Origin: a virus
Lineage: Duplodnaviria; Caudoviricetes
Length of the DNA: 57,861 bases
Reading direction: 5' to 3' (one strand)
IMG/VR virus record: IMGVR_UViG_3300014169_000007
Location: 1 to 57,861 of that record
In this document: in pieces, positions 9,619 to 43,010 of the stretch
Layout of the letters: the number at the start of each line of letters is the position of its first letter
Numbering within the stretch: the stretch's first letter is position 1
Notes under the pieces: model-generated
What the model was told of the DNA's origin: nothing
The model's input: the letters and a program-made list of their open reading frames with translations, nothing else
Database searches by the model: none
Position numbers and translations under genes: made by a program

Positions 9619-9750
9619 ATGATCTGTCAGGAATGTCATGTAGCGCTAAAGTACCCCCATGGCGAGCTAAATCAATGGTGTAAATGCTGTTTTTGCGGGT
9701 TCACTGAGGTTAATCCTACACAAGAAAAATCCAGTATTATCAAAATTTAA
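9619..9750 (+). CDS. Small zinc-ribbon protein (43 aa, absent from the ORF track)
   Basis: Read directly: MICQECH...KCCFCGF...; starts 2 nt after the upstream stop. Confidence 0.45.
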   Translation: MICQECHVALKYPHGELNQWCKCCFCGFTEVNPTQEKSSIIKI

Positions 9751-11020
9751 AGATAATATCAGCTGATATAGTTGTCTGGTCTACAGCAGTCCCATTATTA
9801 TAAGGAGTTACGCCGGGCGCTAAAGACCTCTCGTAACGAACTTCTGGTCGTAACATTACATTCTTAGTAAGATGATGTGTTAGGCCAAACGTGGCGCTAT
9901 AATACGAGGTGGCGTAGCCAGTTCTCTGCCCTTGTGGGTCATTTAAGTAATCGTTTCTTAATGATAGATAGTTACTTTGATTAAGTTTCATTTGAAAGTA
10001 GTTAACAAAGCCCGTAGACCACGATAATCCGTTTATTATAGGTCCACATCCGCCGCCCCCGCCGAATGAATAAATAGGTCCGTAATTACATGTGCCACCT
10101 AATGCGGCGTTATACTGCCATTGGTAATAACCTTCGGTTTGCATGTGGAAGGTATCATTAAATTTATGCCCCCACACTGCTGTGTATGCTCCTAGGTTAT
10201 CATGTCCTTGTGTAAATTGATTACTGCCTAGTGAATTAATGCCGGCCCATAGGGAGTCATTTTTGCTGTTAGAGTCTAATCGAATTAACAATTGTCCGTT
10301 AACAGGAGAGCTGGGTATAAATACAGACATATCATTCGCTCCGTGAGCGCCGGCTAGAATAGACACGTTATCACTTAATTTAACGGTTCCCGTGACCCCA
10401 GTGTATGTGTAAGCGTCGACGGTAAACATTAAGGAATGGGAATACATATAATTATCGGGCGATGTTTGAGCTTCAATATCGGCTGGAGATATATATCGGC
10501 CGGCTTTAATAACTAATCCTTGCGCTACACCTGGGATATAATAGGTTACATACGCTTCCAGGGGATCAAAGCCATACAGGTTGTTATTCTGTAGTAATTG
10601 ATTGCTAAAGTAACCTTGCGCAGTCGTATACCTATAATCTATGCCGTAGATACCAGTTAACCGAAAGCCCCAGTCAGTATTAGTCCTAGACGCCGTATCC
10701 ATTACTTTATCAATTCTTAATCCTAGCTGATCTAATTGCACAGAGTTAGGGACTATATTATAAGACATTGGAGCATTCGATTGGCTAGAAGTACTTATGT
10801 TAGCTCCTACATCCACCCAACCATAGACTTTAATGTGATATTTATCTAAAGAATCTCCAAATATAGAGTTCTGTAATATCCCCCGTTCATTTGGTATGGA
10901 ACTATCCATTGCCGGCGTAGGGCCAACCCAGTCAGAACTAGGAAAAGGTGGAGAATCCAGAGGATCGGCGGCTAAACCAGCTGACGAATAAAGCAATAGA
11001 CTAAGGAATAATATAAACAT
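9740..11020 (-). CDS. Outer-membrane beta-barrel porin, BBP2/OmpL-like
   Basis: Sec signal peptide (...SSAGLA/AD), alternating amphipathic strands, motifs KVYGWVD, G.DYRYT, AGRYIS...E...PDNYMYSHS and LRPEVRYE, C-terminal beta-signal ISADIIFKF; AGGAG SD. Confidence 0.75.
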   Translation of the reverse strand: MFILFLSLLLYSSAGLAADPLDSPPFPSSDWVGPTPAMDSSIPNERGILQNSIFGDSLDKYHIKVYGWVDVGANISTSSQSNAPMSYNIVPNSVQLDQLGLRIDKVMDTASRTNTDWGFRLTGIYGIDYRYTTAQGYFSNQLLQNNNLYGFDPLEAYVTYYIPGVAQGLVIKAGRYISPADIEAQTSPDNYMYSHSLMFTVDAYTYTGVTGTVKLSDNVSILAGAHGANDMSVFIPSSPVNGQLLIRLDSNSKNDSLWAGINSLGSNQFTQGHDNLGAYTAVWGHKFNDTFHMQTEGYYQWQYNAALGGTCNYGPIYSFGGGGGCGPIINGLSWSTGFVNYFQMKLNQSNYLSLRNDYLNDPQGQRTGYATSYYSATFGLTHHLTKNVMLRPEVRYERSLAPGVTPYNNGTAVDQTTISADIIFKF

Positions 11021-11080
11021 AAATCGGTACTCCTATCCCATATAAGTAAGCCATAACCTACTTATTTAGTCAAGTACCAG

Positions 11081-11725
11081 TTAATCTACCCAATATTTGC
11101 TAAAGGGATGATTGTCTTGATAATAAATCTTAGCGACAGCTTGCATTACTTTGTCAGTATTATACACTTTACGTTGCCGCCACAACCAAAAATTACCGGC
11201 GAAGTTCGCCAACATAGACTTATGCTTAGTCGCCTGCCATTGGTGCCAATTAAGCCTTCTCGAATCTGTGTCACTCGTTGGAGCATTAATACATGACGTC
11301 GCGATAACTAGGGCATTATAGAATGAGTAGAATGGCATTAGGAAGCTAGGAACACCCTTATTTAAGAGAAACGCGTACAGAAGCTGGGGGAACCGCCATA
11401 ATCTCATCGGAAGGCTAAATGGCACCTTTAAATCGAATTCAGCATACCCAGCGAATACACCAACGTGATCGTCGTATTCATCGGGGGTGGTGTCTCCAGG
11501 AGCTCTGTGAAGGTGGTTGTCAGTACCAACGCAGGCTTTAATCAATGCCTGGTAATTCGAAACATCAACGGTATTTAGATCGCCATTTCTGTTAAGCATT
11601 ATAAAATACTCACTAGTGAACATAGGCTGGTTATCGCAGCCTCGAATCGTTCCGGAAGGTACTATAGACGGGCATACATAACCGTCAACTGTTTCGTATG
11701 GAGATATCTCGCTGCGCAAACTCAT
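11081..11725 (-). CDS. Hypothetical protein
   Basis: 214 aa, coupled to the endolysin by ATGA overlap; no motif recognised. Confidence 0.6.
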   Translation of the reverse strand: MSLRSEISPYETVDGYVCPSIVPSGTIRGCDNQPMFTSEYFIMLNRNGDLNTVDVSNYQALIKACVGTDNHLHRAPGDTTPDEYDDHVGVFAGYAEFDLKVPFSLPMRLWRFPQLLYAFLLNKGVPSFLMPFYSFYNALVIATSCINAPTSDTDSRRLNWHQWQATKHKSMLANFAGNFWLWRQRKVYNTDKVMQAVAKIYYQDNHPFSKYWVD

Positions 11726-12159
11726 ACAGGCTCCGTGAATAAGGCAGCTTCCATCGCTCTGCGTTTAGTTAGGCCTTCTGATACTTTTCCTCCGGCCTTG
11801 GACCATAAGGAAAATCGTCTGGCTGCTTCTTCAAAGTTACTTAAATTAACTTGCTTTAATAATCCTGAACTGTTGAAATTACCCTGTCCTATATTATAGG
11901 CGAGGCTTACTAAGGCTGAGAATTGATTTTCATTGACATCGACATCTAACTGGTCAGAAACACCTTCTTCGAACTTAACTAAATCTTGTCGTAATTGATT
12001 ATCCGCTTGCTCCTGTGTCCACACTAGCCCGGGTTTAACTTCTGGTCCGGTATGACCAAAACCTATGGTATTAATTCCGATGATATCTTTGTATGTTTCT
12101 AGTCTACAACCTTCGCAAGTCTTTATAATCTCTAAACCTTTTTCATTAATTTTCATCAT
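11722..12159 (-). CDS. Endolysin, GH24 (phage lysozyme family)
   Basis: Catalytic E-x8-D-x5-T (EGCRLETYKDIIGINT), IGFGH, NQFSALVSLAYNIG, GLxxRRxxExxLF. Confidence 0.92.
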   Translation of the reverse strand: MMKINEKGLEIIKTCEGCRLETYKDIIGINTIGFGHTGPEVKPGLVWTQEQADNQLRQDLVKFEEGVSDQLDVDVNENQFSALVSLAYNIGQGNFNSSGLLKQVNLSNFEEAARRFSLWSKAGGKVSEGLTKRRAMEAALFTEPV

Positions 12160-12195
12160 CCCTCCGCAAAAAGTGCCGTCCGTGGCTCATTGATA

Positions 12196-13071
12196 TTACA
12201 GTTCTTCGACTAAATCATCATAATTTAGTGCAGTATTAAATGCTTTGCATAGTGAGTTATCTTTGTGGGTTTTACATACATCCTCAATTTTTTTGAGGAT
12301 TTGTTCTTTATCTTCAGCAGTGGAAGATGGAGCTGCAGCAACACCATCTTCAGCTTTAGGCGCAATTGGGTTTAGATTATCAAGTTCTTTAAATAGAAAG
12401 TTATAAACGTACTCGTGAGGTACAGCCAGAGCATACCCAAGATCACCACTGCCGGCGAATACGACAGCGCTAATCTGATTTTCTTCGCCATAGATTCCGG
12501 AACCCGATGATCCGGGTTGAATGGTTGTAGATACGACGATTGATTCAAATTCACCTACGACGGGTAACTTTCCGGTCATAGCACATATAAAGCCAGTATT
12601 AGGGTTAGATTTTTCAGCTTCTGTACAGTCTCGTAATCCCATTATGATTTGTACGTGTAGCTTATCTGAGAAGTGTCCCCGGGTAATAATTACAGGAAGA
12701 AGATGAGGGTGTCCTGAAGTTGTAGCGTGGTCGAATCTCAATGGTGCAGTTCTCGATACAGATGCAGACGGTCCAGCATGTGCGGATACGAATATAGCGC
12801 ACAAATCATGCCTATTAGACATCTTAAAAGCCGTGACAGATAGTTTACGACCATCTAGTAAATGAACTAATCCTCCATGTTCTACAACCTTACAAACGTG
12901 TCGGTTTGTAAGAATCATCGATAGAGTTTCGGTGGAGTTGACTACCGTACCACTCCCCCCAGAATTTTCAGCCATATTAGTGATTTTAACAGTAGCCGTT
13001 GGTATAAACTCAGAAGGACGCGTGCATCCAACTGTTCCTAGTAACATTAATCCGATTAATAGTTTTTTCAT
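12196..13071 (-). CDS. Trypsin-like (S1) serine protease, lipoprotein
   Basis: Lipobox-like TVGC after a hydrophobic N-terminus; catalytic TNRHV, HDL and PGSSGSG; AAGGAG SD. Confidence 0.85.
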   Translation of the reverse strand: MKKLLIGLMLLGTVGCTRPSEFIPTATVKITNMAENSGGSGTVVNSTETLSMILTNRHVCKVVEHGGLVHLLDGRKLSVTAFKMSNRHDLCAIFVSAHAGPSASVSRTAPLRFDHATTSGHPHLLPVIITRGHFSDKLHVQIIMGLRDCTEAEKSNPNTGFICAMTGKLPVVGEFESIVVSTTIQPGSSGSGIYGEENQISAVVFAGSGDLGYALAVPHEYVYNFLFKELDNLNPIAPKAEDGVAAAPSSTAEDKEQILKKIEDVCKTHKDNSLCKAFNTALNYDDLVEEL

Positions 13072-13107
13072 ATATCTCCTTTTTCCATTACAACATAAAT
13101 AATACGA

Positions 13108-14415
13108 TTATTCAATCTTTAATTCACCTGGGATAATATTATATTCATCTAGTAGGATCTTACATTGTTCTTTAAAATGTGCCTTAGTGAATTTATGGCT
13201 ACTATCGTCAAAGATTACTATCTTACAAGTGTCTTTACCCTTATACCGACGTAGGCCGCGACCAAAAGCTTGCATAAGTGAGTTCTTAGCTTTACCAAGG
13301 CCTGAGATAATAATAAACTCTGCCGGCTTCGTATCTACACCCTCTCCGACAATACCAGTTGTTCCCACTAATGTCTTTATCTTGCCTTTTGAAAAGGCCT
13401 CAATTAATATCATTGAATCCTCAGATTCGCCATTTGCGAACTGCGAACCACATAATTCACTAAGGATCTTGCCATGCGCTATTTCCTTGACTAATACAAG
13501 AGTAGAGACGCCACTATGGTCCAAAGCACGAACCAGTCTAGCAATAAGATTATTACGCACGTCGTTTTCAACCACGAGAGTTTTGTAGACTTGCCGCCAT
13601 GTATGAGCGTTAGTCTTGGTTTTTGGTATCGCAACATAAAATGCCTCCAAGGGAGTTATGTACCCGTTTTCTACCGCTTTATGGAAATCTACCCGGTATA
13701 TTATTCTCCCGGCTATGCTTTCAAACAAGATATCTTCTTCTGAACGACTGCGAAAGGGCGTAGCGGTAAAAAATAGTCTATAGTATATGCCGCTCCAGTG
13801 CTTACTATTTAATGTCCTATAAGTCTTTGCAGCGACATGATGAGCCTCGTCTATGATTAAACAGTCGTACTTCTTAGTCTTTTTAAGCTCCGGAGAATCA
13901 ATATTCTCAATTGTTATATTTTTAAGAGACCCAAAACAAGCTTTAAAATCTTCAGTAAGTTGATTCTTAAGGGTTAGGTTTGGTACTACTATAAGAGTCT
14001 TAACCTGTAGGGCGTTAACTAAGTACATCATGGTTAAGCTTTTACCGAAACCTGTAACTGCTGAAACCGTCCCACGGTGGTATTTCACAGCAGCCTCAAC
14101 TATCTCTAGCTGTTCAATATAGGGGGAATGCGGAAAAGTGGGGTTAAACATCCCAGGCGTAGACGCAGGTTTAACCCTCGTATCTAACACCGAGAATGGT
14201 GCCTTTAAGGCGGTTTTAACAGTCTCTAATAGTCCAGTAGGGAACATGCCTGACTTTGCCAGTAATGACACCCTTTTACCCGCTTTAACGCCAAACGGTG
14301 TAAATACGGGCGGTAGAGAATAGGATAGGACCTCTTTTAGAGAGTTATGTTCGGCTATAGAGAGCCCCTCCACCTTAGAGGTACTGTTGTGTATGATTAT
14401 ATTAATCAACTTCAT
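13108..14415 (-). CDS. SF2 DExH helicase (UvsW-like)
   Basis: TGFGKS, DEAHH, TATP, GEGVD and QAFGRGLR motifs. Start moved to the ATG at 14415. Confidence 0.9.
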   Translation of the reverse strand: MKLINIIIHNSTSKVEGLSIAEHNSLKEVLSYSLPPVFTPFGVKAGKRVSLLAKSGMFPTGLLETVKTALKAPFSVLDTRVKPASTPGMFNPTFPHSPYIEQLEIVEAAVKYHRGTVSAVTGFGKSLTMMYLVNALQVKTLIVVPNLTLKNQLTEDFKACFGSLKNITIENIDSPELKKTKKYDCLIIDEAHHVAAKTYRTLNSKHWSGIYYRLFFTATPFRSRSEEDILFESIAGRIIYRVDFHKAVENGYITPLEAFYVAIPKTKTNAHTWRQVYKTLVVENDVRNNLIARLVRALDHSGVSTLVLVKEIAHGKILSELCGSQFANGESEDSMILIEAFSKGKIKTLVGTTGIVGEGVDTKPAEFIIISGLGKAKNSLMQAFGRGLRRYKGKDTCKIVIFDDSSHKFTKAHFKEQCKILLDEYNIIPGELKIE

Positions 14416-14617
14416 CCCGTTTCCAAAATAGGTAATGGCCGCAGGTTTGGCACTTATCATGTTTCTTACTTACGTTTTTCTCCACACCGTTACGTGACAT
14501 AGTCTTGGCGTTTCGGGCGGCCTTGTCTAATCGTAGACATATTTCACTATCGCATATAGCTTGAAATGTATAAACCTTAACTTTTTCTTCCTCTTCGAAT
14601 AAGTCAAAATAATTCAT
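14402..14617 (-). CDS. Small Cys-containing (zinc-finger) protein
   Basis: GGGAGG SD before MNYFDLF; CDSEIC and CQTCG. Confidence 0.6.
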   Translation of the reverse strand: MNYFDLFEEEEKVKVYTFQAICDSEICLRLDKAARNAKTMSRNGVEKNVSKKHDKCQTCGHYLFWKRDEVD

Positions 14618-14714
14618 AAATCCCTCCCACAGGATTATTAAGTAATAGTAGTATGAACACAAGCAATGCTATAACACTAACAAATACTACTATTTTTTTG
14701 TTAGACCTGTTCAT
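14604..14714 (-). CDS. Small single-TM protein (36 aa, absent from the ORF track)
   Basis: MNRSNKKIVVFVSVIALLVFILLLLNNPVGGIYELF*; a minus-strand TAGTAT -10 lies 7 nt upstream. Confidence 0.5.
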   Translation of the reverse strand: MNRSNKKIVVFVSVIALLVFILLLLNNPVGGIYELF

Positions 14715-15021
14715 ACAATCAATACTATCGTATTAAAAGAAAAATGCAAATATATAAATATTTATTTTAACCTATTGACTTTTATCTAAAAATATGATAA
14801 TACTGTAAGTATATAAATTGCTTAGTTAAATTTACACTAATAATTCTAAAATAAGTTCGTTAGAACTTATTGGGGGTTCAAAGGGGGTACGAAGTAAACC
14901 CCCTTGGTAGATAACTATTCGAATATTTAATATCTATAGATTAACAATTAAAAGGCTATACGTGTGTCTATTACTAAAGCATTCTTTACTAAAGTTAATT
15001 ATAAGAAAGTATACTTAACTA

Positions 15022-15050
15022 TTTACAAATGAATTAAGGTTTGTTATCCT
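15022..15050 (+). promoter_or_regulatory. Sigma70 promoter for sRNA-1
   Basis: TTTACA-17 bp-TATCCT with extended TG. Confidence 0.55.
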
Positions 15051-15056
15051 ATATTT

Positions 15057-15135
15057 GTTAGTCCAACTATCCCTCCTCTCGGAAGGCCTACAACGTATCA
15101 ATCGATACATCACAAGTTGTAGGCCTTCTCTCTTT
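15057..15135 (+). ncRNA. Putative small RNA 1 with anti-SD motif
   Basis: Lies between a promoter and a 13-bp stem (15082-15094/15116-15128) followed by a U-rich tail; no ORF; single-stranded CCCTCCTCTC. Confidence 0.5.
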
Positions 15136-15139
15136 AGTA

Positions 15140-15168
15140 TTGACTATTATAGGTAAATTATGTAATCT
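15140..15168 (+). promoter_or_regulatory. Sigma70 promoter, leaderless geometry
   Basis: TTGACT-17-TAATCT, then 6 nt to ATG 15175; no SD. Confidence 0.7.
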
Positions 15169-15174
15169 AATACT

Positions 15175-15543
15175 ATGAGTACTGAGAAATTAAATCAATT
15201 AGACGAAATAGCGCAGATAATAGCGATAGAAAACTTTAAGATAATGCAGGCATTACCTACAGATGGAACTATAGATCCGATAATCCCAATGGTTACAAGG
15301 ACTTTCAGGTTTTATTTGCAACTGGTGATCCTACATGTTTTAAATAGCAAATATAAAGAAGGGATGACTCAGGAGGAAGCTTACGAGGCAGTTCACCAGA
15401 ATTTCCTGGTGTTTAAGTCTCTTCTTCAAGACAATATAGCTGAAGGATTCGATGCTGCCTTTAAAACTTATGCAGGTCAAACTCTCGATTATTACTGCAT
15501 AATTAGTCCCTTTCCTAAACCCATAAATAAGGAAATGATATGA
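15175..15543 (+). CDS. Hypothetical protein
   Basis: 122 aa ORF starting at the predicted +1. Confidence 0.65.
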   Translation: MSTEKLNQLDEIAQIIAIENFKIMQALPTDGTIDPIIPMVTRTFRFYLQLVILHVLNSKYKEGMTQEEAYEAVHQNFLVFKSLLQDNIAEGFDAAFKTYAGQTLDYYCIISPFPKPINKEMI

Positions 15544-15635
15544 TATATCTAATCTTGTTGGTTTTTATTGTGTTTCCGTTATTAACCACTACTATTATAG
15601 GGCTTTTAGCTTCAAAAGCAGCAGGGAATGAATAA
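15540..15635 (+). CDS. Small single-TM protein (31 aa)
   Basis: ATGA overlap; MIYLILLVFIVFPLLTTTIIGLLASKAAGNE*. Confidence 0.45.
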   Translation: MIYLILLVFIVFPLLTTTIIGLLASKAAGNE

Positions 15636-15636
15636 T

Positions 15637-16074
15637 ATGAGACTGAATAAAGAGACTCAATACGCGTTGCTGTTAGGCATGTACTTAGCTAGATCAGGCA
15701 GATCAACAATTGAGACAGTAGTAGCTAATCTCAACCTTTCTAAGAGTTTTTTACACAAAGTAGCACATAACCTAAGACGACGTGGTATTCTAGAGAGTAC
15801 CCGGGGACCTGGAGGAGGTTTTGAGCTTGCTAAAGATGTTCGGATTATTGATATTTTCAATAGTATCGACGGTAATGGCTTTTTATCTCAAAGAGAAAGA
15901 CTTAAATTGGCTACCGGTGTTGTTGAAGAAAGAATGTTGGAATTAATAGTATCCAATATGGGTTTAGCGATCTGGCCTGTAATAAATAAGACACTTAAAC
16001 AGTTTGTGTCAGAATTAACACAGACAGAATTGAAACAATTAAATACTTTAACCGCAGAATCATTGGAGCAGTAA
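15637..16074 (+). CDS. Rrf2-family winged-helix transcription regulator (no Cys)
   Basis: MRL...YAL...YLA, LSKSFLHKV..L...GILESTRGPGGGFELAK and I.DI...IDG, the Rrf2 signature. Confidence 0.9.
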   Translation: MRLNKETQYALLLGMYLARSGRSTIETVVANLNLSKSFLHKVAHNLRRRGILESTRGPGGGFELAKDVRIIDIFNSIDGNGFLSQRERLKLATGVVEERMLELIVSNMGLAIWPVINKTLKQFVSELTQTELKQLNTLTAESLEQ

Positions 16075-16075
16075 T

Positions 16076-16324
16076 ATGAATATTTTTATTAAAGATCCAA
16101 CAACTGGCCAACCTTCAGAAATGATAACGTTGACAGTCGTAGTAACAGCCGCCGTGGTGTTCCGATTCCTTGTTGATGGAATGACCTTAGAGGTATTTGG
16201 GCATCATCTAACTTTCACTAAATTAGATGCTAGCGTTTATATAGCTCTATTAGCGCCTATGCTAGGGTCTCATGCTTTTATAAAAGGTAAAGGAGTCGAT
16301 AATGCAGTTAACGACAAGAAATAA
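16076..16324 (+). CDS. Two-TM membrane protein, holin candidate
   Basis: Two hydrophobic segments, charged C-terminal tail, GGAG SD. Confidence 0.5.
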   Translation: MNIFIKDPTTGQPSEMITLTVVVTAAVVFRFLVDGMTLEVFGHHLTFTKLDASVYIALLAPMLGSHAFIKGKGVDNAVNDKK

Positions 16325-16787
16325 GATTATATTAGTAGTTGTTTATACAGCTATAGCTGTTGCAGCCGGTCGATATATGACACCGGAGAAGGTTAAGGTT
16401 GAAACAAAGATTGTGGAAGTTGAAAAGAAGACTGATGATAAAGATGTTGCTAAAGAAGACGTTAAGCATAAACATATTGTAGTAACACAAGATTCTAAAC
16501 CTTCTGGAGAGACTATTGTTACCACAGATACGACCTATGATGATAAAGATTCAGAGGATTCCAAAGAAATTAAAACAGACACTTCTTCTAAGGACGAAGC
16601 AGTAGTAAAAGAGACGGTTTATAACAACGGAAGGGTTACGCTCTCTGCCTTAGGCGGCATCAATCTTTCTACTTTAGCCCCAGTTTACGGCGCTTCAATT
16701 GTTAAACCTATTGTAGGTCCGGTTGCCGTAGGTATTTGGGGTTTATCTGATGGTTCTTGCGGTGTATCCGTAGGGTTACAGTTCTAA
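16302..16787 (+). CDS. N-terminally anchored envelope protein, spanin candidate
   Basis: N-terminal TM, charged T/K/E-rich linker, C-terminal amphipathic strands ending GVSVGLQF. Confidence 0.45.
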   Translation: MQLTTRNKIILVVVYTAIAVAAGRYMTPEKVKVETKIVEVEKKTDDKDVAKEDVKHKHIVVTQDSKPSGETIVTTDTTYDDKDSEDSKEIKTDTSSKDEAVVKETVYNNGRVTLSALGGINLSTLAPVYGASIVKPIVGPVAVGIWGLSDGSCGVSVGLQF

Positions 16788-16816
16788 TTGACTTGGTTAC
16801 GTAACCTTGGTATGCT
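16788..16816 (+). promoter_or_regulatory. Sigma70 promoter, leaderless geometry, with palindromic spacer
   Basis: TTGACT-17-TATGCT (TGn-extended), 6 nt to ATG 16823; spacer holds the perfect palindrome GGTTACGTAACC. Confidence 0.7.
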
Positions 16817-16822
16817 CATTAT

Positions 16823-17518
16823 ATGAACTACCAGGTTATTATTACATCATTACTAATCCATAGCGTATGTTGTGCTCAACAGTTACGAGTTGCTATAATT
16901 GACAGTGGTTTAGATATTAACGACGGGCGGTTTAAGGACAAACTGTGTAAATCAGAGTATACGAATCTAGTAACCCACGAAACCATCAATGATGTAAATG
17001 GTCACGGAACCTGCGTAACAAGCCTCGTACAGGAATATGCAAAAGGAGCTGATTATTGCTTCTTAATATACAAATTTTATAGCCAGACGGACAGTTCCGA
17101 CGAGAACGGTAAACGAGAAGTTACGGCGATCCAACTGGCGATAAATAATAGTGCCAATATTATTAACTTATCGGCCGGTGGCGCTACATACAGCCGTCCG
17201 GAACATACCTTAATACACAATAATCCCAGCGTCACGTTTGTTGTATCTTCTGGCAATGATGGATTAAATTTAGACGAAGGTAACAATAAATTCTATCCAG
17301 CCTCACTTCAGGAACCTAACGTAATAGCGGTAGGAGCCACGGTAGCAACCGGAAAAGTAGCTAAATTCTCTAATTATGGATCGACCGTTAAGAACTATGA
17401 AGTAGGCGATAGAGTAAGCTGCGCCGCAATTGGGAAAGGCAATGTATATTTATCTGGAACGTCGTTGTCTACCGCCATTTTTTCCGGTAAACTAATAAAT
17501 AAGCTAGGAGCTAAATAA
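16823..17518 (+). CDS. Subtilisin-like (S8) serine protease, secreted
   Basis: Signal-like N-terminus; VAIIDSG (Asp), HGT (His), SSGN (oxyanion Asn), SGTS (Ser). Confidence 0.9.
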   Translation: MNYQVIITSLLIHSVCCAQQLRVAIIDSGLDINDGRFKDKLCKSEYTNLVTHETINDVNGHGTCVTSLVQEYAKGADYCFLIYKFYSQTDSSDENGKREVTAIQLAINNSANIINLSAGGATYSRPEHTLIHNNPSVTFVVSSGNDGLNLDEGNNKFYPASLQEPNVIAVGATVATGKVAKFSNYGSTVKNYEVGDRVSCAAIGKGNVYLSGTSLSTAIFSGKLINKLGAK

Positions 17519-23936: not shown

Positions 23937-23965
23937 TTGACGAATACCTCGAAACAAGGTATTCT
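23937..23965 (+). promoter_or_regulatory. Sigma70 promoter, leaderless geometry
   Basis: TTGACG-17-TATTCT, 6 nt to ATG 23972. Confidence 0.65.
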
Positions 23966-23971
23966 TTAATT

Positions 23972-24529
23972 ATGAGATACGTAATATTAATAGTCCTAAT
24001 AAATGTGTTAGCGTTAGTTAGTAATGTTAAAAATGTAGAAAGTGATACCTCAACCGTACCTTACTACATCTATAACGCTGCTACTAAGTTCAAAATTGAT
24101 GTAGCTCTACTATATGCATTCTGCCGAGTTGAATCGAATTGCCGCGCCAAGGCGATTAATCATGATGATGGCACAGCAGCTCAAAAAGCAGCCGGTATTG
24201 TAGATAAATCATATGGCCTGTTTCAATTAAAGTTATCTACTGTTAAAGGCTTAGGTTTTCAACAAATTGAACATATTAAAATTGTTAAGAAAACTAAAAA
24301 TAAAACCGTAACGATCAGAAAAGCCGTCGATCATACCAAAGACTTACTAAACCCTGAAGTTAGCACCTGGTATGCTGCAAAGCTTATAAGTCAGTTATAT
24401 AAGAGGTATGGCGATACTCCTAAAGTTATCTCAGCTTATAATGCAGGTCGTTATACTACCGCTAATGAAGAATACGTAATGAGGGTATTGAAGGCTTATA
24501 CACGTTATAAGATTGATAAAAGGTTTTAA
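23972..24529 (+). CDS. Lytic transglycosylase (SLT/GH23) with N-terminal signal or anchor
   Basis: VES catalytic Glu, SYGLFQL, SAYNAG; hydrophobic N-terminus MRYVILIVLINVLALV. Confidence 0.85.
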   Translation: MRYVILIVLINVLALVSNVKNVESDTSTVPYYIYNAATKFKIDVALLYAFCRVESNCRAKAINHDDGTAAQKAAGIVDKSYGLFQLKLSTVKGLGFQQIEHIKIVKKTKNKTVTIRKAVDHTKDLLNPEVSTWYAAKLISQLYKRYGDTPKVISAYNAGRYTTANEEYVMRVLKAYTRYKIDKRF

Positions 24530-26090: not shown

Positions 26091-26125
26091 GGGGGGCGTA
26101 GGAAGCAACTTACGTCCCTCGTTTT
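26091..26125 (+). terminator. Intrinsic terminator after SSB
   Basis: GGGGGGCGTAG-loop-TTACGTCCCTC followed by GTTTT. Confidence 0.6.
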
Positions 26126-26151
26126 AACAGAGAGATAGAGAGGAGGAGTTC

Positions 26152-28029
26152 GTGGTCATCTATAGGCTTATAGCACCGGAATGGTTAACAATTGAATCAC
26201 CTTCGATCCCTAAAGTTTTAGAGGGTGAGTTTACAGACGCAGAAATCAAGAAGTTTAACGAACAAGGATATAACGTATATTACCTCCCTAATTACCCTTC
26301 TTTGTACACCGGCGGTACAGTTGATGGTTCCCAAGTAGACACATTTGAATATGTCTTCGTTGACATGGACCTTAAAGAAGGAAAATATAAGTCTAAAGAT
26401 GAGTTCGTCGAATTCGTATGTACCTTTCCTCTACAACCCACAAAGATCATAGATTCTGGCAATGGTATCCATGTATACTGGAGAGTTTCAGACCTAAATG
26501 CTAAAAGCTATCTATTATTACAAAGAAGACTCACACGTCATTTTAAGTCAGACGAAGCAGTTAGTAAAATTTATCAACTAATGCGTTACCCCGGTACTCT
26601 AAATACTAAGATTAAAGGTAACTTCAAAGCTTGCGCAGTTTGGTTTTTAACAGATGAAGTGTACACATGCGAAACTATTGATAAAGCTTTAGAGCCGATA
26701 ACCCTCTCGGATGAACAGTTTTGTAATCAGCACTTCGAAAAGACCTATAAAAAATACTCAAGAGAAGTTAAAATTGATGAAAAATTACCATCTAAATTTG
26801 GACAACTATTACACGACAGTCAAGAAGTTAAAGATATATGGATTGGCAACACCGACGATCGTAGTAAGAGTGACTTCCGATTAGGGCATATAATGTTTGC
26901 ATCTGGATTTACCAGAAAAGAAGCAACCTCAGTACTAGTAAATTCGGCAAAGGCTCTAGAGCGGACTCCGATCCACCGCCTAGGCTACGCGGAAGGAATT
27001 GTTAATCAAATATGGACTTTTGAGTCGTCATCTATAGATAACAACAAGAAGTCGTTATCTAAAGGTAACAAGATTCCAATTGAATCGCAAAGCGTGTTTG
27101 ATATCCTACAAACAAGCGGCGATACTCTAAAAGGTGAGCGATTCTATTGTTGGCCATATGTCGATAATACGGAACACGGCTTCCGATTAAGCCAGGTAAT
27201 TGGTATGATAGCTGGTTCTGGCGTAGGGAAAACAGCCATTGCTTTAAACATGTTTGAAGGTTTTGTATCTAAGAACCCTAGCTATGACCATCTATTTGTT
27301 ACCTTAGAACAGCCAGCAAAGGAAATAGCCGAACGTTGGAAGAATCTATGTGGTACAAACACAAATTCGCATCATAAGGTTCGTATCCTTAGTAATTACG
27401 ACGATGCAGGTAACTACCGCAACTTATCATTTGATTCAATCCAAGAATATATACTTAACTATCAGAAAGAGAACAACGTAAAGATCGGATGTGTCGTTAT
27501 TGACCATATTGGAGCATTACAAAAGTCCTCTAAAGACGGTCGGCAGAGCGTTGAAGACATCTGCCATAAGATGAAGTCCTTTGCCGTGTCAACTAATACA
27601 CTTCTAGTGATGCAGTCCCAAGCTCCCAGAGAAAAGGCCGGAATCGGTGATTTAGAGCTTAATAAAGACGCAGCTTACGGCACTGTGTTTTTCGAATCTT
27701 ATTGTGATTACCTCCTTACGTTGTGGCAGCCTCTAAAGCGAGTTTATAAAGATGGTGCCCCAACTGTTACCGCTTTTAAATTCTGTAAGATTCGTCATAA
27801 GAATCAAAATAAAGACGTGATTAAAGAAGACATCTGTTATAGACTTAAATTTGATGCTGATTCACAACGATTAAGGGAAATGACGCAGGATGAAGAAGCC
27901 GGTTTTTCATATCACTTAAAGCAAGCTACTGCTAAAAGATCTCAAGATCGTAAAACTGAAATGGTTGAGTATGTAGCGGCTGATTTTGGAGGGTTACATG
28001 GAAAAACTGAAAGTAATAAAGACACTTAG
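26152..28029 (+). CDS. Primase-helicase (RepB-like AEP primase fused to SF4/DnaB-like helicase)
   Basis: VDMD, IDSGNGIHVYW, LMRYPGTLNTK; AGSGVGKT, VTLEQ, VIDH, QSQ. GAGGAGG SD, GTG start. Confidence 0.88.
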   Translation: MVIYRLIAPEWLTIESPSIPKVLEGEFTDAEIKKFNEQGYNVYYLPNYPSLYTGGTVDGSQVDTFEYVFVDMDLKEGKYKSKDEFVEFVCTFPLQPTKIIDSGNGIHVYWRVSDLNAKSYLLLQRRLTRHFKSDEAVSKIYQLMRYPGTLNTKIKGNFKACAVWFLTDEVYTCETIDKALEPITLSDEQFCNQHFEKTYKKYSREVKIDEKLPSKFGQLLHDSQEVKDIWIGNTDDRSKSDFRLGHIMFASGFTRKEATSVLVNSAKALERTPIHRLGYAEGIVNQIWTFESSSIDNNKKSLSKGNKIPIESQSVFDILQTSGDTLKGERFYCWPYVDNTEHGFRLSQVIGMIAGSGVGKTAIALNMFEGFVSKNPSYDHLFVTLEQPAKEIAERWKNLCGTNTNSHHKVRILSNYDDAGNYRNLSFDSIQEYILNYQKENNVKIGCVVIDHIGALQKSSKDGRQSVEDICHKMKSFAVSTNTLLVMQSQAPREKAGIGDLELNKDAAYGTVFFESYCDYLLTLWQPLKRVYKDGAPTVTAFKFCKIRHKNQNKDVIKEDICYRLKFDADSQRLREMTQDEEAGFSYHLKQATAKRSQDRKTEMVEYVAADFGGLHGKTESNKDT

Positions 28030-30094: not shown

Positions 30095-30123
30095 TTGACA
30101 ATAATACTCCGATTTGATAGTCT
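30095..30123 (+). promoter_or_regulatory. Sigma70 promoter, leaderless geometry
   Basis: TTGACA-17-TAGTCT (TGn-extended), 6 nt to ATG 30130. Confidence 0.7.
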
Positions 30124-30129
30124 TTAAAT

Positions 30130-30240
30130 ATGAATGGATATTATATAAAAGGTAAAACAGTTACGGTTACTACAATGATTTCAGTTTATACGTTAGTCAT
30201 GTTAAAGGATTTAGGCTATCATGTGCGATTTCTGTGTTAA
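30130..30240 (+). CDS. Small protein (36 aa, absent from the ORF track)
   Basis: MNGYYIKGKTVTVTTMISVYTLVMLKDLGYHVRFLC*, starting at the predicted +1. Confidence 0.55.
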   Translation: MNGYYIKGKTVTVTTMISVYTLVMLKDLGYHVRFLC

Positions 30241-39548: not shown

Positions 39549-39591
39549 TATCCAGACTTTGATTTAACAACATAAAATTATAGTAATTTTA

Positions 39592-39623
39592 GGGGCTAGG
39601 AATGAAAATTTCTAGCCCTTTTT
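39592..39623 (+). terminator. Intrinsic terminator after the capsid gene
   Basis: GGGCTAG-loop-CTAGCCC followed by TTTTT. Confidence 0.75.
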
Positions 39624-39858: not shown

Positions 39859-39887
39859 TTGACAATAATGGATAATCTTGGTATTTT
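39859..39887 (+). promoter_or_regulatory. Sigma70 promoter opening the accessory island
   Basis: TTGACA-17-TATTTT (TGn-extended); +1 falls on ATG 39894. Confidence 0.65.
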
Positions 39888-39893
39888 ATAACT

Positions 39894-40109
39894 ATGGAGG
39901 ACGGTATGAAATCATACATTATAGCAAGTGGTATAAGCAAAGGCGACGAATCTAGACCAGATTGGGAATGGCAAACTATTGATTTATTAGGTTTTATTGC
40001 TGAAAAACTTAAAGAAGATAGATTAACAGTTAAAAAAGAAGCGCGGTATAGACTTAAGTTTCATCAAATTGCACAAGTAGAATTGAAGCATCAGAAAAAG
40101 GCAGCGTAA
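39894..40109 (+). CDS. Hypothetical protein
   Basis: Start at either 39894 (leaderless) or 39906 (GGAGG SD); both are in frame. Confidence 0.6.
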   Translation: MEDGMKSYIIASGISKGDESRPDWEWQTIDLLGFIAEKLKEDRLTVKKEARYRLKFHQIAQVELKHQKKAA

Positions 40110-40356: not shown

Positions 40357-40744
40357 ATTACTAATAGTATTATTACTCATTGCAGGTTGCGGTCCTCAAT
40401 ACATAATTGAAAAGGGTCCGCAAGGCGACCCAGGAGCCCCCGGTGCAACAGGAGCCACCGGTGCAACAGGAGCCACCGGAGCGACGGGTGCCCAAGGACC
40501 TCAAGGAATACCCGGTTTAAACGCCGCACCGACCACAGCAGTGCAATTCTGCCCCGGTTATACCCCCACCTATCCAACAACCTTCCCTGAGTCAGGATTG
40601 TGTGTTGGAGGCAATATATACGCTGTTTATTGGGATGGTACTAATGCATGGTTATCACTGATACCTCCGGGACACTATGCGTCAACTTCGACAACAGCTC
40701 CGTGTAACTTTACCGTAGTCGCCGGTTGCGTTATAAATAATTAG
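40349..40744 (+). CDS. Collagen-repeat lipoprotein
   Basis: Lipobox IAGC, a run of Gly-X-Y triplets (GPQGDPGAPGATGAT...), Cys-containing C-terminal domain; AAGGAG SD. Confidence 0.75.
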   Translation: MYKLLIVLLLIAGCGPQYIIEKGPQGDPGAPGATGATGATGATGATGAQGPQGIPGLNAAPTTAVQFCPGYTPTYPTTFPESGLCVGGNIYAVYWDGTNAWLSLIPPGHYASTSTTAPCNFTVVAGCVINN

Positions 40745-40798: not shown

Positions 40799-41493
40799 AA
40801 AAATATAAGTTGAGACTAGATTTAAAACGGGAATTAGGATTAGTTACATTGTTTAGGATAGAAAGGTTATCTAACGGTGAATTGGGCGGATACATTGAAA
40901 GCGAGAAAAACCTAAGTCAGGTTGGCCACGCATGGGTATCCGGTAACGCATGGGTATCCGGTAACGCATGGGTATCCGGTAACGCATGGGTATCCGGTAA
41001 CGCATGGGTATCCGGTAACGCATTGATATCCGGTAACGTACGGGTATTCGGTAACGCATTGATATCCGGTAACGCATGGGTATTCGGTAACGCATTGATA
41101 TCCGGTAACGCACGGGTATTCGGCGATGCACAAGTATCCGGTAACGCACGGGTATTAGGCGATGCACAAGTATCCGGTAACGCACGGGTATTCGGTAACG
41201 CATTGATATCCGGTAACGCATGGGTATTCGGTAACGCATTGACATCCGGTAACGCACGAATCGAAAACATCAAAGAAATACTCAATATCACAATCGCTTT
41301 TAAATTCTCAATAACCATAACTCCAGACAATATCGTTATAGGTGACCACTTAAAGAAACGTTCGGAATGGTTGAAGGTAACTAAAGAAGAGGCAGAAGAG
41401 CTGGGTTTGACAGGTGAATTATATGAGATTTATAGATCGGCTATCAAATGGGGAATGAAGATGGTGCCAAAGAGAAAGCGGATTCAGAAATAA
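40795..41493 (+). CDS. Hexapeptide-repeat (left-handed beta-helix-like) protein
   Basis: N-terminal LFRI...GELGGYIESEKNLSQ, then 18 AxVxGN-type repeats. Confidence 0.8.
   Translation: MKKYKLRLDLKRELGLVTLFRIERLSNGELGGYIESEKNLSQVGHAWVSGNAWVSGNAWVSGNAWVSGNAWVSGNALISGNVRVFGNALISGNAWVFGNALISGNARVFGDAQVSGNARVLGDAQVSGNARVFGNALISGNAWVFGNALTSGNARIENIKEILNITIAFKFSITITPDNIVIGDHLKKRSEWLKVTKEEAEELGLTGELYEIYRSAIKWGMKMVPKRKRIQK
40930..41253 (+). repeat. 18-bp coding tandem repeat, 18 units
   Basis: Unit GCATGGGTATCCGGTAAC; the first five copies are identical. Confidence 0.95.
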
Positions 41494-42912: not shown

Positions 42913-43010
42913 ATAGAGGTTAGGTTCGGCGGGTTCCTTCCTACCAAAAGCGAGAACCCCCAAAGTTTGGCCCGCGTACCCCACAAGTTCCTTTCCTTGT
43001 GGGGTTTTAT
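42913..43010 (+). ncRNA. Putative small RNA 2 (or attenuator leader)
   Basis: GC-rich, no ORF; GGGTTC/GAACCC and GCGGG/CCCGC pairings; 10-bp terminator ACCCCACAAG/CTTGTGGGGT plus U tail; CU-rich loops. Confidence 0.55.

Follow-up and report, generated by a model that had tools for sequence, protein, structure and literature searches.

A structured, noncoding unit in the divergent region of an uncultured wetland phage as a candidate small RNA with a CU-rich stretch

C-rich small RNAs (sRNAs) carrying UCCC motifs are known from Firmicutes, where RsaE/RoxS and RNAIII are such RNAs in addition to the LhrC family. In phage lambda, a short terminated transcript from P_R' (6S RNA) awaits antitermination by Q; the c4 RNA is processed from the same transcript as its ant target; and in phage T4, the endoribonuclease RegB acts on GGAG in Shine-Dalgarno (SD) sequences, turning down SD-led mRNAs. 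In the account given in PMC8079631, the UCCC motifs of LhrC sRNAs are single-stranded, pair with AG-rich SD regions and bar the ribosome. The c4 antisense RNA of phages P1 and P7, approximately 77 nt in length, is described in PMC12197685 as binding around the ribosome-binding site (RBS) of a phage mRNA via short exposed segments, and the same source presents lambda OOP RNA (77 nt) and P22 sar RNA (68/69 nt) as RNAs of regulatory regions with their own promoter and a hairpin end. As far as two sources cover the matter (PMC12197685; 10.1101/2024.10.31.621285), the regulatory RNAs known so far from lytic phages of the environment are few, most characterised phage sRNAs coming from phages of the lambdoid or P1 type.

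The locus described here belongs to an uncultured, lytic-looking wetland phage. The window, that is, the whole stretch of DNA that was analysed, corresponds to an entire virus record of IMG/VR (57,861 bp; completeness rating 100%) and has a G+C content of approximately 40%. The candidate unit sits in a 460-bp gap that separates a leftward from a rightward gene block (Table 1) and represents the largest divergent intergenic region of the genome. SD sites of the AGGAG/GGAGG type precede most phage genes, and the GC skew merely tracks gene orientation. A gene for an Rrf2-family regulator lies 450 nt downstream of the element (Pfam E 1.4e-15). The phage is distant from those in culture: a blastn search with 14600-15700 gave no match among isolated phages, and the nearest isolated-phage relatives of its polymerase are at most 32% identical. 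Comparison of the endolysin with a protein atlas places it in the phage-lysozyme family, which points to no host. For the 122-aa protein encoded next to the element, the sole relative is a cluster at 98%, and its structural model, comprising four helices with a mean pLDDT of 59.4, is too poor for a structure search. A search of the window for tRNA and tmRNA genes found none, and the Rfam 15 covariance models, including C4, RsaE and LhrC, gave 0 matches over the whole window at gathering scores. The Rfam comparison that the original prediction had put forward likewise yielded nothing, with 0 matches in 14700-15250 even at E <= 10.

In its logic, the candidate RNA would come nearest to C-rich/UCCC sRNAs with SD regions as pairing partners, represented by the LhrC family, of which it is not a member. 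As in the description of LhrC in PMC8079631, it would be a short RNA with UCCC in a CU-rich single-stranded stretch adjoining a terminator hairpin; unlike LhrC, for which that source describes several UCCC motifs, also in loops, it has one CU stretch, and its loop AAUC and bulge AUCACAA are free of the motif. It also differs from LhrC in having no sequence or Rfam similarity to it and in being encoded by a phage. Among phage RNAs, the nearest analogue would be c4 of P1/P7, again without membership: the target of c4 is the ant mRNA of the immunity operon to which c4 itself belongs, whereas the present locus has no antirepressor context, no Rfam C4 match, and a promoter-like site of its own. Similar size, an own promoter-like site and a hairpin end are features in common with OOP and sar. 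A cis-antisense RNA of the OOP/sar type was considered and rejected, as the opposite strand has no conserved frame and the phage contains no complement that reaches 12 nt; a ToxI-like RNA of a type III toxin-antitoxin system was also rejected, given that 14600-15300 contains no tandem repeat and that the 122-aa protein has no family match. The arrangement of a promoter and a terminator within approximately 100-200 nt at the head of a long one-directional operon resembles lambda P_R', although the downstream genes here are early/replication genes, the first of which has its own promoter. The logic of damping SD-led mRNAs, which the original prediction had proposed, is similar to that of RegB, although RegB is a protein nuclease and not an RNA.

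Table 1. Features of the candidate unit, its surroundings, its proposed pairing partners and the matching metatranscriptome contigs (positions in the window)
Feature	Position	Strand	Description
Leftward gene block	9740-14714	-	Helicase, trypsin-like peptidase, endolysin
Candidate target GGAGGGAT	14620..14627	-	RBS of 71-aa gene (ATG 14617); + strand ATCCCTCC; complement of 15069-15076
Leftward promoter-like site	14998..15028	-	-10 TATAAT 15003..14998; -35 TTGTAA 15028..15023
Rightward promoter-like site	15022..15050	+	TTTACA, 17 nt, TATCCT; TG two bases 5' of -10
5' part of candidate RNA	15057..15081	+	Predicted unpaired in the MFE fold and, except for a 3-bp helix, in the centroid fold
CU-rich stretch ("seed") ATCCCTCCTCTC	15069-15080	+	Inside the predicted unpaired 5' part
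Composite hairpin	15082..15128	+	13-bp perfect stem, 15082-15094 with 15116-15128
Tail TCTCTTTAG	15129..15137	+	Weak U tract, putative 3' end of the RNA
Promoter of 122-aa gene	15140..15177	+	TTGACT, 17 nt, TAATCT, 6 nt, ATG; no SD
122-aa gene	15175-15543	+	ATG would be the first transcribed base by promoter placement
Rightward gene block	15175-57529	+	All genes +; ORFan 122 aa, Rrf2-family regulator, S8 peptidase, primase-helicase, family-A polymerase
Leaderless layouts	15140-15177, 16788-16825, ~23937-23974, ~30095-30132, 39859-39896	+	No SD
Candidate target GAGAGGAGG	26138..26146	+	RBS of primase-helicase (GTG 26152); exact complement of 15072-15080
Candidate target GGAGGG	27988..27993	+	Before polymerase ATG 27998; complement of 15071-15076
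Metatranscriptome contigs, run X1	15230-15527, 15592-15842, 16201-16367		100% identity
Metatranscriptome contigs, run X2	15529-15707, 16235-16416		100% identity

Two promoter-like sites overlap at the left end of the unit. For the rightward one, an extended -10 promoter had been claimed, and the hexamers and the TG are indeed present in the window, but the TG is missing in the second allele known from relatives, whose site reads TTTACA-17-TATTCT. Between the two alleles, TTTACA and TAT(C/T)CT are kept 17 nt apart, with nearly the whole spacer sequence swapped. The site matches the consensus at 9/12 positions, but such matches occur in the genome at chance frequency (56, 48 and 62 per genome third, compared with 56.7, 52.8 and 49.9 in shuffles). 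Transcription from it would be expected to start near 15057. The leftward site shares bases with the rightward one (TTTACAA/TTGTAAA), its -35 TTGTAA being the reverse complement of the TTTACA region. Its spacer is 19 nt in the window, owing to a TA insertion, and 17 nt in the second allele (L011 3822-3872), in which TTGTAA-17-TATAAT scores 10/12 in the promoter scan; the 19-nt-spaced version of the window is absent from the listing of that scan. The region is thus a back-to-back pair of promoter-like sites.

Downstream of the putative start, the CU-rich stretch is single-stranded in both the MFE and the centroid fold, as had been predicted, and is alike in the other allele; within it, UCCCUCC at 15070-15076 is unpaired in both folds. 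It is followed by the hairpin, whose 13-bp stem around a GTATC/GATAC mini-hairpin proved to be present and perfect, the inner stem having 5 bp and a loop AATC, with a 7-nt bulge ATCACAA on the 3' side. The hairpin folds at -26.7 kcal/mol (z -6.31; 0/200 shuffles equal) and is the most stable 60-nt window on the + strand when the whole 57.9-kb genome is scanned in 5-nt steps. The same bases on the minus strand also fold, at -25.6 kcal/mol (z -3.4). In a fold of 204 nt, 15059-15069 pairs with 15135-15146, around the hairpin. No complement of the hairpin loop is found elsewhere in the phage.

A U-rich tail, the last element of the proposed anatomy, is present but weak, with T at five of the first eight bases (TCTCTTTA) and a C interrupting the tract, compared with the T tracts TTTTATTG and TTTATATT of the canonical phage terminators at 39591-39620 and 42978-43005. 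In the other allele, a CT insertion changes the tail to CTTCTCTTTAG, which gives TTCTCTTT after a stem that is one pair longer. The 13-bp stem encloses 21 nt with a nested hairpin and is absent from a terminator scan that allows loops of 3-8 nt. The claim that the unit contains no open reading frame is borne out by two 2-nt indels that shift both ends of the only + frame (33 aa in the window and 50 aa in the second allele, the middle alone being common to both); the minus-strand frames, of 32 aa and 30 aa, diverge past the indel as well. A self-contained transcription unit of approximately 78 nt is plausible.

The element is present in four viral contigs, which, counting the window, represent two allele types: one of the four is 99% like the window, and the other three are approximately 90% like it, with an HNH endonuclease gene inserted on the left. 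Word scans of viral contigs with three motifs returned 73, at least 111, and 32 stretches, respectively, and among the matches listed, only the four known contigs resemble the element (79-86, against at most 23 for the others). Protein-guided scans with the helicase, the 122-aa protein, the Rrf2-family regulator and the S8 peptidase recovered the same four contigs and no further copy, adding three fragments (L005, L008 and L009) that all stop short of the element. A scan of metagenomes brought up nothing beyond the same 60-kb contig, neither of two bacterial-genome scans yielded a copy of the element or a relative, and the more distant relatives of the helicase (59% and 49% identity) come from fragments in which the region is missing. 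As only two alleles exist and their stems are identical, covariation has nothing to act on. L008 (positions 1-311) and L009 (positions 1-306), each approximately 27 kb in length and 47% and 58% complete, end approximately 310 nt upstream of the helicase gene; ends in the same divergent region may reflect a repeat, the genome end or an assembly break.

To the left of the element, 14715-14980 is replaced between the alleles, the relatives carrying there a 164-aa HNH gene on the minus strand (L011 3003-3810). The segment specific to the window contains a promoter-like TTGACT-17/18 site at 14775 and hairpins at 14850-14871 and 14881-14905, and two G5 runs in 14715-14980 vie for one C5 run (fold z -2.7). 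In the second allele, the HNH gene and the other genes on the left all run leftward, and between them and the 15022-15050 site the promoter scan lists nothing on the + strand; in the absence of a rightward source upstream, the hairpin can there end only transcripts from that site. The concern that the hairpin might act solely as a terminator for upstream transcription is answered by this allele, which has no such source.

Evidence of constraint comes from a single pairwise comparison between the window and L012, in which 0 substitutions occur over the 112 nt of 15055-15166, the differences there being TA inserted after 15067 and CT after 15128. The adjoining 122-aa gene differs in the same comparison by 30 substitutions in 366 nt, affecting 26 of the 122 third codon positions. 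The probability of 0 changes in 112 nt is approximately 2e-12 at the third-position rate of 26/122 and approximately 7e-5 at the gene-wide rate of 8.2%. The tract of low divergence extends to approximately 15308, with 5 substitutions in 15167-15308, and at the local rate of approximately 3%, 0 changes in 112 nt have p ~0.03; the low divergence is possibly that of a recombination patch. Loop and bulge bases are likewise unchanged between the alleles, and the conservation of loop, bulge and 5' single-stranded bases, none of which a plain terminator needs, counts for the sRNA reading. Conservation also reaches 100% in the spacer of the downstream promoter; an RNA ending at 15137 leaves this unexplained, and it counts against the sRNA reading.

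Base-pairing of the CU-rich stretch with ribosome-binding sites of replication genes was the functional core of the original prediction. The matches themselves are as described: the complement before the primase-helicase gene is exact, GGAGGGAT precedes the ATG at 14617 (-) and is complementary to the RNA, and GGAGGG stands before the polymerase gene. Their frequency is that of chance, however. The primase-helicase match is one of 39 complements of 9 nt to the RNA, with 45.6 expected, and the numbers of exact complements of 9, 10 and 11 nt (39, 9 and 1) compare with 45.6, 11.3 and 2.8 for shuffled RNAs. The exact 9-mer occurs at 2 sites including itself, a number reached in 5 of 100 genome shuffles, and the longest complement elsewhere has 11 nt, the 5' half of which lies upstream of the putative start. 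The RBS of the primase-helicase gene is unchanged in 3/3 aligned relatives, which are 97% identical there and so provide little information.

When the duplex energies of 15057-15081 were computed against 80 start regions from a crude gene caller, the primase-helicase ranked first and the polymerase third of the 80. The energies follow generic SD strength (Spearman 0.55). Composition-matched shuffles of the seed (300 trials) attained the best energy in 10.7% of cases and the mean of the top five in 7%. Target ranking of the kind originally suggested gives a best match of a strength that shuffled seeds also attain. The caveat attached to the proposal, namely that seed matches are partly expected for an anti-SD sequence, proved apt, since any CU-rich stretch matches this strong-SD genome alike. 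The proposed ribosome-site targets are no better than chance, and blocking of the RBSs of replication genes finds no support beyond what CU-rich sequence gives. For the trans-acting RBS-blocking RNA as a whole, a stand-alone noncoding unit is reasonable, and the targeting is at chance level.

The gene that follows is independent of the unit in its expression signals. The -35 TTGACT of the 122-aa gene starts 11 bases past the hairpin stem, and the presence of this promoter 5' of the gene means that the gene does not need the promoter upstream. In the second allele, the promoter reads TTGACT-17-TAATAT and is listed by the promoter scan; the TAATCT of the window fits the -10 consensus at 3/6 positions and was found by a regex scan, not by the promoter scan. 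The layout of a -35, 17 nt, a -10, 6 nt and an ATG, with an open frame of at least 30 aa required, occurs in five cases, all on the + strand (15175, 16823, 23972, 30130 and 39894), compared with 0.65 ± 0.84 in first-order simulations, 0/200 of which reach five. Random sequence is poor in long frames, and the fairer comparison is a looser count of 12 versus 4.7 ± 2.2. At 16788-16823, a relative of 83% identity keeps the hexamers and their spacing, with 5/17 spacer bases changed. The leaderless genes noted in the original prediction hold up in that the layout is recurrent and its hexamers are conserved at 16788; the layout is probably real, and its sequence suggests several leaderless mRNAs. The case at 39894 is ambiguous, as a second ATG, in frame and preceded by a GGAGG site, lies 12 nt further on.

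Around the promoter of the 122-aa gene, further sequence features are apparent. A 7-bp inverted repeat, TAGTATT/AATACTA, flanks this promoter, and words similar to TAATACTA cluster at 14643-15175, which holds 13 of the 132 matches in the genome. The region 15135-15175 may be an operator for the Rrf2-like regulator.

The unit is real, constrained, structured and noncoding, and it is a fair candidate for an sRNA. Its anatomy, the constraint on its loop and single-stranded bases, the fact that the hairpin has only the unit's own transcript to end, and a downstream gene that can do without the unit together favour a stand-alone sRNA of approximately 78-80 nt whose CU stretch acts on purine-rich ribosome-binding regions, a reading that is held tentatively, at somewhat less than an even chance. 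A cis-acting promoter-proximal element, instead of a trans-acting RNA, is an unlikely but substantial alternative, for which two forms can be envisaged. As a terminator or insulator, it would stop rightward transcripts before the leaderless promoter 11 nt on, where a leader would spoil the 5'-terminal AUG; as an attenuator or antitermination leader of the long rightward operon, its CU stretch and hairpin would be read by a protein or an RNA polymerase modifier. The -35 in common with a better leftward promoter is consistent with this reading, as rightward firing could be a by-product, and so are the end of the hairpin 11 nt 5' of a -35 whose transcript begins at the ATG, the five leaderless layouts against 0.65 simulated, the + orientation of every gene in 15175-57529, the possible helix 15059-15069/15135-15146 around the hairpin, the conservation that continues across the downstream promoter into the gene, and target matches at chance level. 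Three points go against it, however: the loop, the bulge and the 5' single-stranded part have kept their bases, whereas a plain terminator could do without this; a U tract this weak would ill suit an efficient insulator; and an mRNA produced by read-through would bring the 122-aa start with no SD at all.

An improbable alternative is a DNA site, in which the nested inverted repeat and its conserved flanks bind a phage regulator, e.g., the Rrf2-family or the 122-aa protein, that controls three clustered promoters, or form an origin-type structure. The 112 nt without substitution include the downstream spacer, whereas the comparable 16788 spacer changed at 5/17 positions, and the nearby gene for an Rrf2-family regulator, the cluster of TAATACTA-like words and the TAGTATT/AATACTA repeat also fit a site of this kind. 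Perfect 13-bp arms 21 nt apart with an asymmetric 7-nt bulge nevertheless point to a single strand that folds more than to an operator for a dimer, and the half-site has 5 matches with at most 3 mismatches, 2 of which are the arms themselves, against 12.4 expected; a repeated operator half-site was rejected on this count. A GC skew that follows gene orientation only also counts against this reading. Still less credible is a function of the minus strand, where the hairpin, a strong SD GAGAGGAGGGAU and a mini-frame TTG GAC TAA would form a leader or the decayed start of a leftward gene. In the leftward block, the remaining CCCTCC occurrences on the + strand (12160 and 14622) are SDs of minus-strand genes, the hairpin folds on that strand too (-25.6 kcal/mol), and 5 nt separate the SD from the TTG in the window, as against 7 nt in the other allele; against this, no minus-strand promoter-like site is listed between the hairpin and the + strand gene, the hairpin has no T run after it on that strand, and the frame consists of two codons only, the 32-aa and 30-aa frames differing past the indel. 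Most improbable of all is a mimic of the anti-SD tail, produced abundantly from an early promoter, that masks strong SD sites of host and phage mRNAs and shifts initiation to leaderless phage mRNAs (15175, 16823, 23972 and others). If this were true, the mimic would be an RNA-based switch between SD-led and leaderless translation.

For the favoured stand-alone sRNA, a small, self-contained unit in the divergent early-promoter region can be pictured, with a putative start, stop, discrete RNA and targets. Host RNA polymerase would start at the sigma-70-type site 15022-15050, transcribe approximately 25 unpaired bases, UCCCUCCUCUC among them, and then transcribe the strongest hairpin of the genome. 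An at least partial stop at the weak U tract around 15133-15137 would release a noncoding RNA of approximately 78-80 nt, the exposed CU-rich stretch of which would most likely base-pair with purine-rich ribosome-binding regions, either at the strongest phage SD sites (primase-helicase, polymerase and the 71-aa gene) or in host mRNAs. Such pairing would reduce translation, an effect known from C-rich sRNAs such as LhrC and RsaE. Were the unit to make an anti-SD RNA next to a set of leaderless genes, it would be a simple, testable example of a phage that adjusts the kind of mRNA on which ribosomes start; for now, the locus is a candidate that is well defined, clear in its anatomy and constrained in sequence, and its RNA and targets are putative.

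Two wetland metatranscriptome runs from two studies contain contigs that are 100% identical to the window and cover the first rightward genes only. The interval 14000-15229 has no contigs; contigs of at least 151 nt could reveal neither an RNA of 80 nt nor the strand and ends of one. RNA libraries of the wetland habitat contain this phage or one nearly identical to it.

Several further features of the rightward block were observed in the course of the analysis. Between the 122-aa and the Rrf2-like genes, at 15540-15635, lies a very hydrophobic frame of 31 aa (MIYLILLVFIVFPLL...), which is kept in relatives and has no special complementarity to the candidate RNA. A strong hairpin (GGGGGGCGTAGG...CTTACGTCCCTC) with GTTTT after it is found at 26091-26125, where the 162-aa gene lies on one side and the RBS of the primase-helicase gene, which is very rich in purines, on the other; relatives retain the hairpin, except that one stem G is changed to A. 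Among the most stable local folds are 40436-40495 and 40956-41210, where tandem 18-nt units (GGTATCCGGTAACGCATG, GGAGCCACCGGTGCAACA) lie in coding frames and probably encode repeat or collagen-like protein segments.
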